A DNA stretch of 54,395 nt. Origin: Gammaproteobacteria bacterium (GTDB lineage Bacteria > Pseudomonadota > Gammaproteobacteria > Ga0077536). The notes below the pieces were generated by a model. The model saw only the letters and a list, made by a program, of their open reading frames with translations. It did not search any database and was not told the DNA's origin. The DNA lies in assembly GCA_047611905.1 (NCBI GenBank), contig JBLFWZ010000004.1:1-54395 (forward strand), in the 5' to 3' direction. Shown in pieces: positions 21,920-52,746 of the stretch (positions are counted from its first letter, which is position 1; each line of letters starts with the position of its first letter). Both the position numbers and the translations under genes were made by a program.

Positions 21920-22345
21920 ATGAGATTTGGAAATTTAGCGATAGCAGCATGCGCGACTTGCTTGCTAGTCGGGCCGACAGGCGCCTTAGCAATGAAAATA
22001 AAACCCGGCAAATGGGAGTTCCGTTCGACGAATTCTATGCACGGTGCGGGGGCGGCACAGGAGCAAGTCGATCAGCAATGCATAAGCGATCCGGTAATGA
22101 GACCCGACACCTTGATGAAAGATATGAACAATGGCTGCCAATTGTTAGATACTGAAGATGCAACAGACTCGATGTCCTGGAAAGTGACTTGTTCTAATGC
22201 CGGAGGGGAAATGTCTGGCAGTGGTAACGTCCGTCGCGAAGGCGACGGTCTGGTCGGCGGCATGCAGATGACGATGTCGTTTAATGGTCAGAAAATGGAT
22301 ATGCGAGTCGGGTGGACGGGAAAATATCTCGGCCCGTGTCACTAG
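21920..22345 (+). CDS. DUF3617-like exported protein
   Basis: Signal peptide, KPGKWEF, QQCI, Cys pair, C-terminal GKYLGPC. Confidence 0.8.
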   Translation: MRFGNLAIAACATCLLVGPTGALAMKIKPGKWEFRSTNSMHGAGAAQEQVDQQCISDPVMRPDTLMKDMNNGCQLLDTEDATDSMSWKVTCSNAGGEMSGSGNVRREGDGLVGGMQMTMSFNGQKMDMRVGWTGKYLGPCH

Positions 22346-22358
22346 CGCAGGTTTGACA

Positions 22359-24707
22359 ATGACAAATTCCAAGCAAGAGCATGTTAGCGAAAACTCATCT
22401 GAGGAGAATAATTTGTTGCGCGATAGTGCGGTCGCGTTTTGTACTCGCGATGCGGGCATTACGCGGCTGCGCACGCTCAAACGGTCTGAAAGTGATTTTG
22501 ATCCGAGCGTGTGGCACAAGATGGTTGAGCTTGGATGGTCTGCGATTTTGGTCGAAGACGCGAGTGACGGTTTGGGACTGGGGTTGGATGCAGCAGCGAT
22601 TATTGCTGAAGAGCTAGGCCGAGTCGTTGCGCCAGAGCCGTTTATTGAAGTGGCGGGGCTCGCCGTCATGCTACTCAATAAATTACCGCCAGGCGCGCAA
22701 CGGCAAATGTTATTGCGTTCGATAGCGAGCGGTGACCTCATGCCGATTGTTTGTGCGTCAGAAGTTCAAGCCAACGCACTCGAGGACCTTCCGCGCGCGA
22801 CCGCGAACAGCGATGGTTTTTCGCTAACTGGCCATGTCGATCACGTTGTGCATGCATCCGATGCCGACGGCTTCTTGGTCCCGGCATCACTTGATGGTGG
22901 ATTGGCGCTATTCTGGGCGTTGAGATCAACACCGGCGATTACCGTTGAATCACGAAAGCTTGCCGACAACACAAGCCACGCGCGGGTGTCGTTTGCGAAC
23001 ACCGCGCTCGACAAGTCTTGCTTGCTTGGCGGTGGAGCGACAGTGAGTGCGGCATTCAACTCGGCACTGAGCGACGCGCAGGTGCTTACGTCGGCCTATT
23101 TGTGCGGTTTGATGACGCAAACACTCGAAACGACTCTGGATTATCTGCGCATGCGCAAACAATTTGGTCGCGCTATTGGGAGTTTTCAAGTGCTACAACA
23201 CCGCGCCGTCGATCTATATATCGCGCGCGAACTGGCGTCCTCGGTGGTCACCGACGTGGTCGGATCAATGATGCGCGAAACGGATGAAGCGGCGCGGGCG
23301 ATCTTAGCGAGTCGCGCACGGTATCGAACAACGGAAGCTGCTCTGGCCGTGACCCGGGCGGCTATACAAATGCATGGCGCAATTGGTTTTACGGATGAAT
23401 GCGACATAGGCCATTATTTGAACCGCGCGATGGTATTGGGTTCACGGCGCGGCAACGCGAGCTGGCATTTGCGTCAATTGGCGGTGCTAGCTTTGGACGA
23501 CGAACGGAGTCCCGTACAAGACACGAGTGCGCTTGCTAGTACCGACGGATCCGGCAGCACCCGCTATAACGATCTCAGTGATGAAGAATTTCGCTACCTG
23601 GTTCGGACTTGGTTCGAGAAAGAATATCCCGAGGAGCTGCGCTATCCGCCGCGACGATTGCATTTCGAGGAGATCAAGGACTGGTACCTCAAGCTTTCAG
23701 AGAAATCTTGGTTAGCACCGAGCTGGCCGGTGGAATTCGGCGGCATGGGCCTGTCGCCAGCAAAGATGCTGATATTTATTGAAGAACAAGAACGTTGGGG
23801 GGTGGCGCGGGCGCCTGACATGGGGATCACAATGATCGGGCCATTGTTGATCCAGCACGGCAACGCGCAACAGCGTGAACAATACTTGCCAAAGATTCTC
23901 GCCGGCGAGAACATCTGGTGTCAGGGGTACTCGGAACCCAACGCGGGATCAGACTTAGCTAGCTTGCAATGCGATGCGGTCCTCGATGGAGACGAGTTTG
24001 TTGTCAACGGACAAAAGACCTGGACAACCTTAGCGCAAGACGCGACCCACATCTTCTTATTAGTCCGCACCGATAAACACGCGAAGAAACAGGCAGGGAT
24101 TAGCTTCTTACTGGTCGATATAAGTTCGCCAGGGATCACGATTCGTCCGATACGAAACATTGCCGGGGACGAAGAATTCTGCGAAGTGTTTTTCGATGAT
24201 GTAAGCGTCCCAACCGAAAACCTGGTCGGCGAAATGAATACAGGTTGGGCAATAGCAAAAGCCTTACTGGGATTCGAGCGGATCTTCCTTGGCTCGCCGA
24301 AGCAATCGCAATATGCGCTACAACGTCTCGAAAGCATCATAGCTGGGCAAGATTTAATGAACGATCGTGGATTCATGGACCGTTTTGCACGGCTTAAAGT
24401 CGACACCTTGGACCTTGAAGTTATTTACACACGCTTCGCCCAGATCGTTCGCGATGGCGGCACTTTGGGTCCGGAAGTTTCGATTCTAAAAATTTGGGCA
24501 ACAGAAACGTTTGCGCGCTTAAGCGAACTCATGCTCGAAGCTGCGGGAGAGCTTGGCGCTGAACGTGGTGAGTTGAAGTTTGGTAACGGCAAAGCCAACA
24601 TCCTGAGCCAATTCTACAACGCGAGACCGGCGACGATTTACGGTGGTAGTAACGAGATTCAGCGCAACATCGTCGCGAAAAACGTCTTGGAATTACCGGA
24701 CTCTTAA
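22359..24707 (+). CDS. Fused two-domain acyl-CoA dehydrogenase (PimD-PimC / FadE34-like architecture)
   Basis: First domain RKQFGRAIGSFQVLQHR, IQMHGAIGFT; second domain WCQGYSEPNAGSDLASL, NGQKTWT, FCEVFFD, TIYGGSNEIQRNI; ATG 22359 avoids overlap with the upstream gene. Confidence 0.92.
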   Translation: MTNSKQEHVSENSSEENNLLRDSAVAFCTRDAGITRLRTLKRSESDFDPSVWHKMVELGWSAILVEDASDGLGLGLDAAAIIAEELGRVVAPEPFIEVAGLAVMLLNKLPPGAQRQMLLRSIASGDLMPIVCASEVQANALEDLPRATANSDGFSLTGHVDHVVHASDADGFLVPASLDGGLALFWALRSTPAITVESRKLADNTSHARVSFANTALDKSCLLGGGATVSAAFNSALSDAQVLTSAYLCGLMTQTLETTLDYLRMRKQFGRAIGSFQVLQHRAVDLYIARELASSVVTDVVGSMMRETDEAARAILASRARYRTTEAALAVTRAAIQMHGAIGFTDECDIGHYLNRAMVLGSRRGNASWHLRQLAVLALDDERSPVQDTSALASTDGSGSTRYNDLSDEEFRYLVRTWFEKEYPEELRYPPRRLHFEEIKDWYLKLSEKSWLAPSWPVEFGGMGLSPAKMLIFIEEQERWGVARAPDMGITMIGPLLIQHGNAQQREQYLPKILAGENIWCQGYSEPNAGSDLASLQCDAVLDGDEFVVNGQKTWTTLAQDATHIFLLVRTDKHAKKQAGISFLLVDISSPGITIRPIRNIAGDEEFCEVFFDDVSVPTENLVGEMNTGWAIAKALLGFERIFLGSPKQSQYALQRLESIIAGQDLMNDRGFMDRFARLKVDTLDLEVIYTRFAQIVRDGGTLGPEVSILKIWATETFARLSELMLEAAGELGAERGELKFGNGKANILSQFYNARPATIYGGSNEIQRNIVAKNVLELPDS

Positions 24708-32614: not shown

Positions 32615-33610
32615 GTGACGCTTGAACCCAGCCATCCGTTCGACACTTTAACCCCGGATTTCATACTCAATTCGCTAGAAGAACACGGCGTACTCAGTGA
32701 TGGTCGGTTACTGGCGTTGAACAGTTACGAAAATCGCGTTTATCAAATCGGTATCGAAGATGGAGAGCCACTCGTTGCTAAGTTCTACCGACCGGATAGG
32801 TGGAGCGACGACCAAATCTACGAGGAGCACGAGTTTTGTTTCGAACTCGCGGCAAATGAACTCCCGATCGTCGCGCCAATTGTGAATGCCAACGGTGAAA
32901 GCATGCTTCGTTGCGGAGCGTTTCGTGTTGCCTTGTTTCCTCGGCGCGGAGGTCGCACGCCAGACATCGACGATCTAGATAATTTGCTGATCCTAGGCCG
33001 CCTGCTTGGCCGCATCCATTTAACTGGCGCAAATCGGCCGTTCGAACACCGGCCAACAATCAATTGTGTCAACTTCGGACACGATTCCGTAGCAATCGTA
33101 GGCGGGCGTTTTATCCCAGCGGAATTGGCCCCGGCCTACGACTCTTTAGCCGAGGACTTATTAAAAAAATTAGATGCCATCTTCGCTACCGTCGGCGATA
33201 TTGAACACATCCGTGTACACGGCGATTGTCACAGTGGGAACATATTATGGCGCGATGCGACGCCACACTTCGTCGATTTTGACGACTCACGAATGGCACC
33301 GGCAATTCAAGATCTTTGGATGCTGCTGTCTGGCGATCAAGAACGACAACGCGCGCAACTTTCCGAAATTTTAGAAGGCTACGGGGAATTCAACGATTTT
33401 CACTTTAAGGAACTGCAACTCGTCGAAGCGCTGCGCACGTTACGTTTACTACACTACAACGCCTGGCTTGCGGAGCGTTGGGACGACCCAGCATTTCCAC
33501 GTACCTTTACGTGGTTTAACTCGCCGCGTTACTGGGAGCAGCACATCCTCGACCTACGAGAGCAATATGCCGCGTTGGACGAGCCGCCCTTACAAGTATT
33601 TAGCGGCTAA
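32615..33610 (+). CDS. srkA: Stress response Ser/Thr kinase SrkA (YihE/RdoA)
   Basis: LNSYENRVYQ, KFYRP.RWS, HGDCHSGN, DFDD, QDLWMLL, RWDDPAFP. Confidence 0.97.
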   Translation: MTLEPSHPFDTLTPDFILNSLEEHGVLSDGRLLALNSYENRVYQIGIEDGEPLVAKFYRPDRWSDDQIYEEHEFCFELAANELPIVAPIVNANGESMLRCGAFRVALFPRRGGRTPDIDDLDNLLILGRLLGRIHLTGANRPFEHRPTINCVNFGHDSVAIVGGRFIPAELAPAYDSLAEDLLKKLDAIFATVGDIEHIRVHGDCHSGNILWRDATPHFVDFDDSRMAPAIQDLWMLLSGDQERQRAQLSEILEGYGEFNDFHFKELQLVEALRTLRLLHYNAWLAERWDDPAFPRTFTWFNSPRYWEQHILDLREQYAALDEPPLQVFSG

Positions 33611-33636
33611 GGCGTGTTTCCAGTGGCCTATCGAAC

Positions 33637-33937
33637 TTAGGCATTCGTAGTGATGGAAAAGCCTGCTTGAATTATTTTTAATGCGCTTTTGAAACTAGTC
33701 GTTATTCGATTCAACGAGAAAGTGCACGGCAAATAGCCGAACCCGGCTTTACCTACACGACTGCAGGGATGCAGGAGATAGAGCAACGCAGGAGCAGTTG
33801 CCGACGACTGCAGGGATGCGCGAGATACGAGTCCACGGCTAGGATTGCCCCTGCAATCCTTTTGCATTCCCCGCAGTCCATGGCGGTCAGATGGACGAGG
33901 GAGAACTGAGCCGGGAGCGACGCAGGAGCGGTTGCCA
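33637..33937. mobile_element. Composite non-autonomous repeat, copy A: ~125-bp imperfect hairpin element (33637-33760) plus tandem/nested ~45-bp GGA modules
   Basis: Ungapped similarity to 51768-51891; 45-bp ACTGCAGGGATGCAGGAGATAGAGCAACGCAGGAGCAGTTGCCGA identical at 33760-33804 and 51960-52004. Confidence 0.8.
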
Positions 33938-33966
33938 GGTAGGACTACGTTAGGTCCGGCGGGTTC

Positions 33967-34764
33967 CTAGCGACCGCGAAATTTAGCCGGGCGCTTTTCG
34001 CGAAATGCCGTGGTTCCTTCTTGAAGATCGGCTGTTTGACCTAGGCCGTGAAACGACGTCGACTCGAGTCGCAATGCTTCATCCAAACTCATTCCCTGCG
34101 CTCGTACCATGACATCTTTCGCGCGTTGTTGCGCCAATGGTGCCCGCGACGCAAGACGCGCGGCGTATGCGAGTGTCTCATCTAAGACCGATTCTTGCGG
34201 GTAGATTCGGTTAACTAACCCGATGCGTAAGGCGTGGGTCGCATCGAAGCGATCGCCAGAGAGAATCATCTCCATGGCATTGCCAGTTCCGACAATCTCG
34301 CGTAAGCGGATTAATCCACCGTCACAAGGATGGAATCCCCAATTGACGTCTTGAAACCCAAAGGCCGCATGTTCCGAGCAAAACCGGATGTCGCATGCGA
34401 GCGCGAGCTCAAAACCGCCTGAAATCGCGAAACCGTTTACCGCAGCAATGATCGGCTTGGCGATATGTAAGTTTCTGGTAATGCCCCCGAATCCAGGGCC
34501 TTGGGTATATTTCGCGTGAAATTCCGGTGCTGGGGTCGTTGCATAATTCATCGTGTAGGTTTTTAGGTCGGCGCCCGCACAAAACGCCTGACTACCGCTG
34601 CCCGTAATAACGGCCACCCTAAGCTCCGGCTCGCGCGCAAACTCCTGCCATTTCGCTACCAACAAATCGTTGGCAGCGAAATCCAACGAATTCATGACGT
34701 CCGGACGATTGATCGTGATTAGGGCGACATGACCGATCTGCTCAAGTGAGATATCTTCAGGCAT
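33967..34764 (-). CDS. Enoyl-CoA hydratase/isomerase (crotonase) family protein with atypical active-site segment
   Basis: INRP..MNSL, FCAGADL, KPIIAAVNG.AISGGFELALACDIR, FQDVNWGFHPCDGG, AFREKRPA.F. Confidence 0.92.
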   Translation of the reverse strand: MPEDISLEQIGHVALITINRPDVMNSLDFAANDLLVAKWQEFAREPELRVAVITGSGSQAFCAGADLKTYTMNYATTPAPEFHAKYTQGPGFGGITRNLHIAKPIIAAVNGFAISGGFELALACDIRFCSEHAAFGFQDVNWGFHPCDGGLIRLREIVGTGNAMEMILSGDRFDATHALRIGLVNRIYPQESVLDETLAYAARLASRAPLAQQRAKDVMVRAQGMSLDEALRLESTSFHGLGQTADLQEGTTAFREKRPAKFRGR

Positions 34765-50834: not shown

Positions 50835-51254
50835 TCAATCGTGATCAATAATCCGCCCTCTTAAAGACTTAGTCCGCCCCCGTTTAACTTTGGTATCGAG
50901 ACGGCGCGCGCGCGCGTTGACGCTAGGTTTCGTCGGCCTACGACGTTTAGGCTGGTGAGCAACTTTGCCAATTAGCTCAATTAATCGGTTGCGAGCAATT
51001 TCTCGATTGCGTTCTTGGCTACGTGATTCCTGCGCCTTGATTACGACCACGCCGTCTTTCGTCACGCGATAATCAGACAGTGTGAGGAGTCGTTGCTTCA
51101 ACTGTTCCGGCAACGACGAACTTCGGATGTCGAAACGCAAATGAACCGCGCTCGACACCTTGTTCACATGTTGACCGCCCGGACCTTGGGCGCGAACGGC
51201 ACGCATTTCGAATTCTTCTTCGGCAATCGTGATGTGGTGGTTAATTCTTAGCAT
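50835..51254 (-). CDS. arfB: Alternative ribosome rescue peptidyl-tRNA hydrolase ArfB
   Basis: GPGGQHVNK (GGQ), RSQERNR, basic C-tail RRPTKPS...K..R. Confidence 0.95.
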   Translation of the reverse strand: MLRINHHITIAEEEFEMRAVRAQGPGGQHVNKVSSAVHLRFDIRSSSLPEQLKQRLLTLSDYRVTKDGVVVIKAQESRSQERNREIARNRLIELIGKVAHQPKRRRPTKPSVNARARRLDTKVKRGRTKSLRGRIIDHD

Positions 51255-51380
51255 GCCTGATCCGTTAGCGGCCGCAGCGCAGCCAGATTCTGTCGGCTGA
51301 GGCGGCCTGAAAGAATGGCAACGTTGACGAAATCGCGAAGCGCGGCGGCCCGTAGCCCCGAACAGCGAAGCGCTACGACG

Positions 51381-51692
51381 TTAAGACTCCGCGGCATTTG
51401 CGCAGTTAATACAGAGAAGTATTGAGGGATCAAACTCCAGACGTTTGCTTTCGACGACTTCACCGCAGCGTACGCAATCGCCATACTCATCGCGCTCAAC
51501 ACGTTGCAACGCCACTTCGATGCGCTGTAATTGGACTTTGCGTCGACGCTTAACTTCCAGAGACATGGCCTGGCCCTGCATCGCATCCATGCGCGATAAG
51601 CGCCCAACCCGACTCTGATCCAGTTCCACAACTTCGGACGACTCAGCGCTGCTTAGCTCGAGCGCGAGTAACTCGTCTCGAATTTGCAGCAA
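51381..51692 (-). CDS. TraR/DksA family C4 zinc-finger protein (true start may be upstream)
   Basis: DQSRVGRLSRMDAMQ, YGDCVRCGE...RL...P...CINC. Confidence 0.88.
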   Translation of the reverse strand: MLQIRDELLALELSSAESSEVVELDQSRVGRLSRMDAMQGQAMSLEVKRRRKVQLQRIEVALQRVERDEYGDCVRCGEVVESKRLEFDPSILLCINCANAAES

Positions 51693-51767
51693 CTTGAGTT
51701 TGATTATTTCGTTATCGATTGGATTTACCCTCAGTTTCCGCGCAACTGCACTAGGAGCCTGGCGGCC

Positions 51768-52004
51768 TTAGACGTTCGTCATGAGGGAACGTCCCGTTTG
51801 CGTTGTTCTTAATGTACTTCTAAGGCGAATAGTCATTCTATTTAACGAGAATGTACACTGGAAACGGCCAAACCCGGCGTTTCCGCACGACCGCAGGGAT
51901 GCAGGAGGTACGACCCCATGGATGGGGGAGGTAGAGCAACGCAGGAGCAGTTGCCGACCACTGCAGGGATGCAGGAGATAGAGCAACGCAGGAGCAGTTG
52001 CCGA
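51768..52004. mobile_element. Composite non-autonomous repeat, copy B: hairpin element (51768-51891) plus tandem GGA modules
   Basis: Homologous to 33637-33937; module heads at 51888, 51911 and 51958. Confidence 0.8.
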
Positions 52005-52101
52005 GTAGAACCCCCTAGTATCGGCTGCCAACCCAAGACATCCACACGGCCCGCGGTAAATCATCAGGACAGGAAGCTAAAATTTCGAAACCTCTGATCC
52101 G

Positions 52102-52746
52102 CTAGCTCGGTTCCGGCGCGTAGTGAATCGTCGATAGAAATTTAATCGGTAATTCGATCAGTCTGTCTGGCCCATGCGGAATTTTTCCTTGAAAACTTAT
52201 CGCGTCGCCGTGCTCTAAGACATAGGAATTTTTCCCCACGCGATACTCAATTCTTCCTTCCAACATGTAGATAAATTCCGTCCCTTCATGCTGAAAACGG
52301 GGAAACAATTCCGACTCATCATCTAAAGTGATCAAGAAAGGTTCGAATAACTTCTTTGGTCCCTGATCATAGGACAATAGTTCATAGGAATGTCCGCGCT
52401 TGGTTCCGCGTCGCGCGACGTCCATTCCCTGGCCGCGTGGAACAAATTTCGCCCCGCCATCCGGAATATCGAAGTCTTTAAACAAGTTCGACATTGACAC
52501 GCCTAAGGACTGACATATTCGTTGCAAAGCATCAAGACTTGGCGTCGCTTGGTCATTCTCGATGCGACTGATCATACCGCGACTCACGCCAGATAATTCA
52601 GACACATCCTGGATCGTTAGATGTTGATTTAGGCGATGTCGCTTTAAGGTCATACCGACGAACGCGCCGAGATTACTCGCGTCGGCGACATCTTCACCGT
52701 CTGCTTCGAGCGCAGGAGGAGTGGCAGATTGCTTTGACACCGTCAC
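52102..52746 (-). CDS. XRE-family HTH + cupin transcriptional regulator
   Basis: LTIQDVSELSGVSRGMISRIEN..PSL HTH; FQHEGTEFIYMLEG, PHGP cupin. Confidence 0.93.
   Translation of the reverse strand: MTVSKQSATPPALEADGEDVADASNLGAFVGMTLKRHRLNQHLTIQDVSELSGVSRGMISRIENDQATPSLDALQRICQSLGVSMSNLFKDFDIPDGGAKFVPRGQGMDVARRGTKRGHSYELLSYDQGPKKLFEPFLITLDDESELFPRFQHEGTEFIYMLEGRIEYRVGKNSYVLEHGDAISFQGKIPHGPDRLIELPIKFLSTIHYAPEPS

Follow-up and report, generated by a model that had tools for sequence, protein, structure and literature searches.

The DNA analysed here, which we call the window, is a stretch of 54,395 nucleotides in which two arrays of small GGA-loop hairpins, locus A and locus B, each lie inside a larger MITE. 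The individual repeat, termed the unit below, consists of a head hairpin and a tail hairpin; features of both loci are given in the order of their coordinates.

33620-33970, + strand: host MITE of locus A, between srkA (+ strand, ending at 33610) and an enoyl-CoA hydratase gene (- strand)
33758-33804, + strand: complete 47-nt unit of locus A, whose intact counterpart is absent from the allele of the congener G006
33805-33938, + strand: nested pair, with a head at 33805-33827, an interrupted head at 33828-33902 and tails at 33903-33938
33838-33889, - strand: type II element of about 52 nt with two GGA hairpins, lying reversed in the NG|GA loop of the head that starts at 33828
51751-52030, + strand: host MITE of locus B, beginning with CTAG, left TIR from 51755, body to 51887, right arm from 52005
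51888-51910, + strand: head 1, 23 nt, with a GGGA loop and one C.A stem mismatch
51911-51957, + strand: complete 47-nt unit with a TGGA-loop head and a GC-AGGA-GC tail, inserted behind head 1 at GGTA|
51958-52004, + strand: second 47-nt unit, in tandem, starting with CCA in place of CGA, its final 45 nt equal to 33760-33804
52065-52076, + strand: CAGGAC-AGGAAG, beyond the element; the orthologue in G006 does not conserve it
52102-52746, - strand: right neighbour, an HTH regulator gene (PuuR-like, below cut-off) that reads toward the element on the non-GGA strand

Elsewhere in the window, an 807-aa ORF at 22284-24707 fuses two acyl-CoA dehydrogenase-like halves (one PimD-like, one PimC-like), and two overlapping minus-strand ORFs at 51248-51692 (127 and 103 aa) have no Pfam match, their DNA being conserved in congeners.

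The repeat in the window is real and far beyond chance. A two-hairpin census returned 32 matches in the source genome (G000) and 2 in its reversed sequence, an nhmmer model, self-seeded from the same genome, placed 36 of 48 rows at E<0.01, and single units fold with z-scores of -2.4 to -3.6 on either strand. The hairpins of a first-pass annotation, CTGCA-GGGA-TGCAG at 33761 and 51961, CCCCA-TGGA-TGGGG at 51914 and the interrupted GTCCA-CG/GA-TGGAC at 33831, are all where it had put them, and the 45 bp that it had described as identical between the loci are indeed without difference (33760-33804 and 51960-52004); an unrelated contig also has an isolated match to 33757-33804. Its GCAAC...GTTGC tail is present too, although as merely one among several tail types. 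The motif CAGGAC-AGGAAG, in contrast, had been misplaced at about 52045 and is probably a chance occurrence, and while the arrays themselves, which offer up to eight GGA loops, had been recognized, the enclosing larger MITE (from 51751 at locus B and about 33620 at locus A) had been overlooked. Since locus B holds three heads and two tails, one tail has probably been lost by slippage; at locus A, 33903-33938 represents two tails fused through deletion.

Both arrays occupy one exact site of the host MITE, TCCGCA|GTAGAAC. Empty, this MITE measures about 165 nt and is flanked by CTAG, and by hand count the source genome holds five full-length empty and at least 12 filled copies. Its TIRs, CTAG flanks, empty sites and a related transposase identify it as a genuine MITE: a DUF772 transposase fragment on contig C200 (L335:2-420; E 7e-6) is preceded by CTAG and a similar TIR, and from this similarity the MITE probably derives from such an insertion sequence, whose family we take to be IS1182. 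Aligned with empty copies on three contigs (C177, C79, C244), the locus B MITE has a degenerate right arm, its right end falling somewhere between 52018 and about 52030. Insertion of the locus A MITE left the enoyl-CoA hydratase gene intact, since its stop codon overlaps with the right CTAG of that MITE (33967-33970). Comparison with congeners points to turnover at both loci. The entire MITE of locus B is absent at the orthologous interval in G006, G007 and G009, and that of locus A is absent from G001 by alignment and from G007 and G009 by flank spacing; G006 retains it, with decayed heads and no type II insert. Conservation of the locus across close relatives, as expected of a sponge sRNA, is thus found at neither locus. 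Exact heads number 0-20 per genome in the genus, with 8 of 11 genomes positive and none in the closed genome G004.

The unit measures 47-48 nt and folds into two separate hairpins, without a common basal stem, the head with an A-N-GGA-Y loop and the tail with an A(N)GGA(N) loop; ANGGAY occurs in the head loop only. The head of 23 nt runs CGA, stem, N-GGA loop, stem, GAG-R-TA, and the tail of 24-25 nt has CCGA at its end. A GTAG/ATAG tetranucleotide, itself part of the search patterns, stands 5' of the tail hairpin. Among 128 units, 86 have 48 nt and 40 have 47 nt; in a second set of 109 the figures are 63 and 46. Having neither TIRs nor a target duplication, the unit, unlike its host, does not qualify as a MITE. 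When the 14-nt head was left free in the search, 126 distinct copies retained the loop A in 123 cases and the three positions of GGA in 124, 124 and 125, followed by T (110) or C (14), with the N position free (T 76, G 31, A 13, C 6). The head loop is closed by C-G, an A.C mismatch being tolerated after GGA. Of 265 tail loops, 252 carry GGA, as A-GGA, AN-GGA, CN-GGA or A-GGA-N. Covariation among 77 sequences left 97.2% of cells paired, which none of 500 shuffles reached, likewise on most measures, and the five pairs with compensatory changes were four of the five in the head and one in the tail, although the 5' arm of the tail was fixed by the search pattern and relatedness inflates the result. 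The predicted combination of invariant GGA loops with covarying stems therefore stands, GGA being near-fixed even where the search left it free. Both loops also fit the published CsrA/RsmE motifs, CAGGA(U/A/C)G and ANGGAN, including the free N positions, as had been proposed (PMC7652899).

The folding does not fix which strand does the work: both strands fold to the same degree, and the A.C mismatch becomes a G.T wobble when read on the opposite one; mismatches in head pairs 1-4 lean toward the other-strand wobble, 10 versus 4. A tail variant with a TGTA loop and hence without GGA exists in eight copies in one genome (G260), at several target types. Two further loci of the source genome (C125:3738 and C70:7578) hold other two-hairpin GGA variants, whose stems and linkers differ, and this suggests a wider superfamily. 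The type II element of locus A (one G of its insertion ends is ambiguous) destroys the GGA of the head that receives it, and the same type II-in-head arrangement recurs on contigs C46, C57, C59, C70 and C178, but is absent from the G006 allele. Other members of this family, all with a two-GGA-loop layout, occur in the source genome at C57:8752 and C178:5390 and at four other loci (L030, L045, L119, L394). The type II element in turn receives the 47-nt unit, at the A|GGA of its tail.

Across 225 insertion sites, which we collapsed to 133 target families, the junction is A|G in 89 families, with A at -1 at a frequency of 0.86 and G at +1 at 0.74; A|GGA accounts for 19 of 89, compared to a background of 5.6% (p 4e-7). 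No left-right duplication is seen in 96 of the 133 families, and one of three or more bases in only 3, while empty and filled MITE alleles fix the unit ends, free of duplication. These data show that insertion is seamless, with fixed unit ends, into a strand-specific purine target, (C/G)A|G-R. A single target family received 11 unit variants across 13 sites. The unit also inserts into its own head-tail junction, yielding nests with stacked heads and tails, and behind its own 3' end, yielding tandems, so that the dispersed, self-nesting repeat of the first-pass annotation is indeed a mobile one, with many target families. Insertion into hairpin loops was not enriched (42 of 132 junctions, 37 expected), and 30 tests gave no covariation between loop variants and targets; the last base of the unit alone was linked to -1/+1, a one-base boundary effect.

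By our own reading of the sites, recipients are mostly other repeats: the units hitch-hike in MITEs, REP-like repeats, TwoAYGGAY-like elements and transposase genes (transposase-like genes of the source genome, IS256, IS91). In one closed genome, G531, eight loci (L405, L406, L407, L413, L418-L420, L427) have the unit between both hairpins of TwoAYGGAY-like elements. Two uninterrupted TwoAYGGAY neighbours in that genome score with the Rfam model RF01731, one at 48.3 bits, and so serve as a positive control. Units near IS91 genes sit within or next to them as passengers, and at six loci (L388, L391, L394, L395, L397, L277) several GGA unit types lie in or beside such transposase genes. As IS91-family DNA passes through long single-stranded phases, this is a possible hint of single-strand targeting. 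Head-only remnants in G260 (L198, L203, L206) have lost the tail between its first bases and matching host bases.

Ordinary genes receive the unit in frame, at a gain of 16 residues. In the BREX methyltransferase gene pglX of plasmid NZ_CP093250.1 (L004:2507-2554) it forms an in-frame stretch of 16 codons that most plasmid homologues do not have; pglX homologues are about 51 nt shorter across the inserted stretch. For uvrD, the homologue in the source genome shows a gap of 18 residues, and further insertions were found in shc, uvrA and cobN, with antisense copies inside cobN, dabA, merT and others. A mobile unit this small, whose ends are exact and whose target follows a rule, has added 16-residue loops to conserved enzymes such as UvrD, UvrA, squalene-hopene cyclase, CobN and PglX.

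A pattern search found the unit in 15 of 251 genomes of the class, and the genome collection holds at least 121 loci. The 80 titled loci among the matches listed are gammaproteobacterial by name, except for one Verrucomicrobia MAG and one unplaced proteobacterial MAG. Further matches come from 123 metagenome loci, 6 viral contigs and 10 plasmid records, whereas the phage collection gave no match to the unit. A scan of the phylum found it in 15 of 301 genomes, of which 9 belong to two families that are not part of the class. The unit spans numerous gammaproteobacterial orders and two or more families of other classes. The source genome has the csrA gene that a role for CsrA presupposes (PF02599 at C109:4041-4196, E 7e-26), and csrA is present in 14 of 15 unit carriers, compared to 215 of 250 class genomes (the unit and csrA tallies of the class both include G075, a genome flagged as unpublished), and in all 9 carriers outside the class. 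None of 59 genomes carries the unit in five families whose six tested representatives lack csrA (hand count); several csrA-positive families are likewise without it. In genus g178, 6 of 23 genomes appeared to lack csrA and 5 of these carry units, which we rejected as csrA-less carriers because these are assembly gaps: the upstream aspartate kinase gene is also missing in four of the five and truncated by the end of a contig in the other. Another genome without a csrA match, G198, is 95% complete in 470 contigs. The suggested restriction to csrA-positive taxa is borne out in so far as no genuine csrA-less carrier was found, but since csrA is so general in the class, its co-occurrence with the unit has little power.

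Orientation was scored by ORF heuristics at loci with long flanks only (75 of 116 and 74 of 109). In intergenic positions, the 33 cases in which the GGA strand follows a gene of its own strand compare with 27 in which it is downstream of a gene on the opposite strand (p 0.52), and co-directional flanks divide 17 versus 12 (p 0.46). Inside Pfam-supported ORFs, 14 copies are sense and 7 antisense (hand count, one uncertain case omitted), a lean toward sense, despite the larger number of open frames on the antisense strand, that counts against pure indifference to orientation; the antisense in-gene copies, however, cannot come from insertion into mRNA. With respect to replication, GC skew gave no significant strand bias (32 of 65), nor did the closed genome G531, where 18 copies are leading and 27 lagging (p 0.23, with the terminus assumed at half length). 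At locus A the GGA strand lies behind srkA on the same strand; at locus B both neighbours are on the - strand and the GGA strand is antisense to both. A consensus scan of 51600-52150 detected no promoter-like site on the + strand and no terminator, and in one RNA run (share 0.05) the pieces over the element are foreign contigs and carry no strand information. The expected bias of the GGA strand toward the transcribed strand is therefore not seen between genes, and at locus B the opposite holds.

Fixed ends, the missing duplication, a short strand-specific target, hairpins and both orientations together point to DNA-level single-strand mobilisation in trans. With a little better than even confidence, we regard the element as a selfish non-coding unit of 47-48 nt that is moved in this way, and not as part of a sponge kept by the host. 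The mechanism would be a cut-and-join of DNA on a single strand, most likely by an HUH/Y1-like nuclease that would bind both folded hairpins. There is precedent in Y1/TnpAREP enzymes, which act on single-stranded hairpins, strand-specifically and with dinucleotide cuts (PMC8266576), and in single-strand mobilisation by HUH/Y1 enzymes more broadly (PMC6006769). That the mobilising enzyme reads the GGA loops may be the main reason why they are kept, and a target rich in A|GGA could reflect a single GGA-reading pocket serving both element and target. When transcribed, the GGA strand would probably bind CsrA in vitro, but such binding would be a side effect rather than the reason why the copy at locus B exists.

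The mobilising enzyme was not found among Y1, reverse transcriptase (RT), IS110 and IS91 genes or neighbouring ORFs. None of the Y1 loci in the source genome, five carriers and the genus is flanked by the unit, in a small sample of which one set comprised 30 loci; 108 neighbour and host ORFs contained no Y1 gene, and unit copy number did not track Y1, IS110, IS91 or RT counts in the 5-11 genomes tested. RAYT enzymes cut their guide strand at C|T or C|A (PMC8266576). This guide rule does not hold here, as the GTAG hairpin lies on the GGA strand and C|T on the other strand, and the junctions on the GTAG strand are of the two forms A|C and A|G. A further point against mobilisation by a transposase alone is that the closeness of the loops to the CsrA motif and the csrA-bearing carriers must then be coincidence.

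The alternative that survives best keeps the unit selfish and makes CsrA its host factor: a CsrA dimer would clamp both loops of an RNA intermediate of the GGA strand and so protect or present it for copying and insertion into DNA. In its favour are the near-fixed A-N-GGA-Y heads and the GGA of nearly all tails, both matching CsrA motifs, the presence of csrA in every carrier outside the class, the empty csrA-lacking families with their apparent exceptions explained as gaps, and RT genes in G000, G006, G260 and G007 and none in the copy-free G004. This last point is weakened by G007, which has six RTs yet two copies, just as the csrA co-occurrence is by its low power and by the csrA-positive families without the unit. 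Moreover, the A.C mismatch is equally an other-strand wobble, and leans that way, the tail variant without GGA still spreads, and no promoter-like site was seen on the GGA strand of locus B. We therefore consider a CsrA-assisted RNA intermediate possible but rather unlikely. Unlikely as well, and slightly more so, is the specific proposal of a minimal mobile element whose A(N)GGA(N) loops are clamped by a CsrA dimer for seamless delivery to A|GGA-like sites. If it were true, CsrA would be a transposition cofactor and the family confined to csrA-bearing lineages, and there would be a de novo route to Csr sites, multi-site sponges and 16-residue protein insertions.

The original proposal for this DNA, that the host keeps the dispersed arrays as a Csr sponge or in order to place neighbouring transcripts under Csr control, appears quite improbable. 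It can draw on the fit of the loops to the CsrA motif, the arrays of up to eight of them, the GGA strand behind srkA at locus A and a similar proposal in print for TwoAYGGAY. Against it stand the lack of an intergenic strand bias and the antisense position at locus B, the unconserved loci with loops decaying in G006, the closed congener G004 with its 0 copies, and type II insertions that wreck head loops. Turnover, decay and orientation make a host-kept sponge the reading least consistent with the data, and neither sponge nor transcript control finds support as a function; as a sponge, the array at locus B is unlikely to matter, and what had been taken there for an undescribed Csr system is a mobile mini-repeat. 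That the unit is not self-mobile and spreads purely as MITE or REP cargo with slippage and gene conversion is highly improbable: many same-genome copies do share a host repeat (G260, G286, G531), and head-only remnants and fused tails do show slippage at short repeats, but the 225 sites in 133 unrelated target families share a junction motif and fixed ends, and the insertions in the unique genes uvrD, shc, uvrA and pglX largely refute it.

Each of CsrB, CsrC and RsmX/Y/Z is encoded at one conserved locus and has a promoter and terminator of its own. They have GGA in hairpin loops like the unit (PMC7652899). The unit differs from such dedicated, transcribed sRNAs in that its loci are not conserved, that it occurs in both orientations and that the GGA strand of locus B shows no promoter- or terminator-like site. 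Rickettsia palindromic elements (RPE) are repeats of palindromic structure that occur in frame within protein genes. Compared by description only, these elements, named in PMC3733652, belong to another taxon, and the unit is shorter and has conserved GGA loops. YPAL/RU-2 of Yersinia (PMC2759123) is likewise mobile and non-coding, with two CA-NGGA-TG hairpins in its printed sequence and ORF fusions, but measures 168 bp; repeats that we would call YPAL-like from their resemblance appear to host the unit in another genome (G153). REP/REPIN sequences with their RAYT/TnpAREP enzymes and the ends of IS200/IS605 elements (PMC8266576, PMC6006769, PMC3733652) share small hairpins and the GTAG/ATAG 5' of the tail hairpin, and REP/RAYT systems also a strand-specific target at the dinucleotide level, in-frame intragenic copies and nesting in palindromes. 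In contrast to these, the unit was not found flanking a Y1 gene, is cut at A|C and A|G and shows no covariation between loop and target. Weinberg 2017 reportedly includes a 'GGAM' motif. This lead was not borne out in the main text of that paper (PMC5737381), where no passage on CsrA was found, and its supplement may hold a matching motif. Our literature search, with most subscription journals outside its coverage, found no description of the 47-48-nt unit, and Rfam searches that covered the window, the genome and 12 loci gave no match to it at either gathering or E-value thresholds. The mini-element is thus real and apparently undescribed, but of a known general kind, the non-autonomous palindromic repeats with GGA loops.

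Its closest counterpart is TwoAYGGAY (RF01731), two A-N-GGA-Y hairpins that occur in multiple copies in Gammaproteobacteria with highly variable copy number (PMC2864571) and have been read as CsrA sites (PMC4333381). For an extended form, a Csr sponge combined with mobile-like spread has been proposed (bioRxiv 10.64898/2026.09.22.753630), so that the same idea, put forward as new for the present arrays, was already in print; the supplement of that preprint could include the unit as a TwoAYGGAY variant. The unit differs from TwoAYGGAY in its 47-48 nt, the missing basal stem, the A(N)GGA(N) form of the second loop and its defined ends and target; it inserts between TwoAYGGAY-like hairpins and has no RF01731 match, while true copies nearby do score. 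With its defined ends, target and loop tolerances, it offers a simpler object than TwoAYGGAY for testing whether CsrA or the mobiliser is what maintains GGA-loop repeats.
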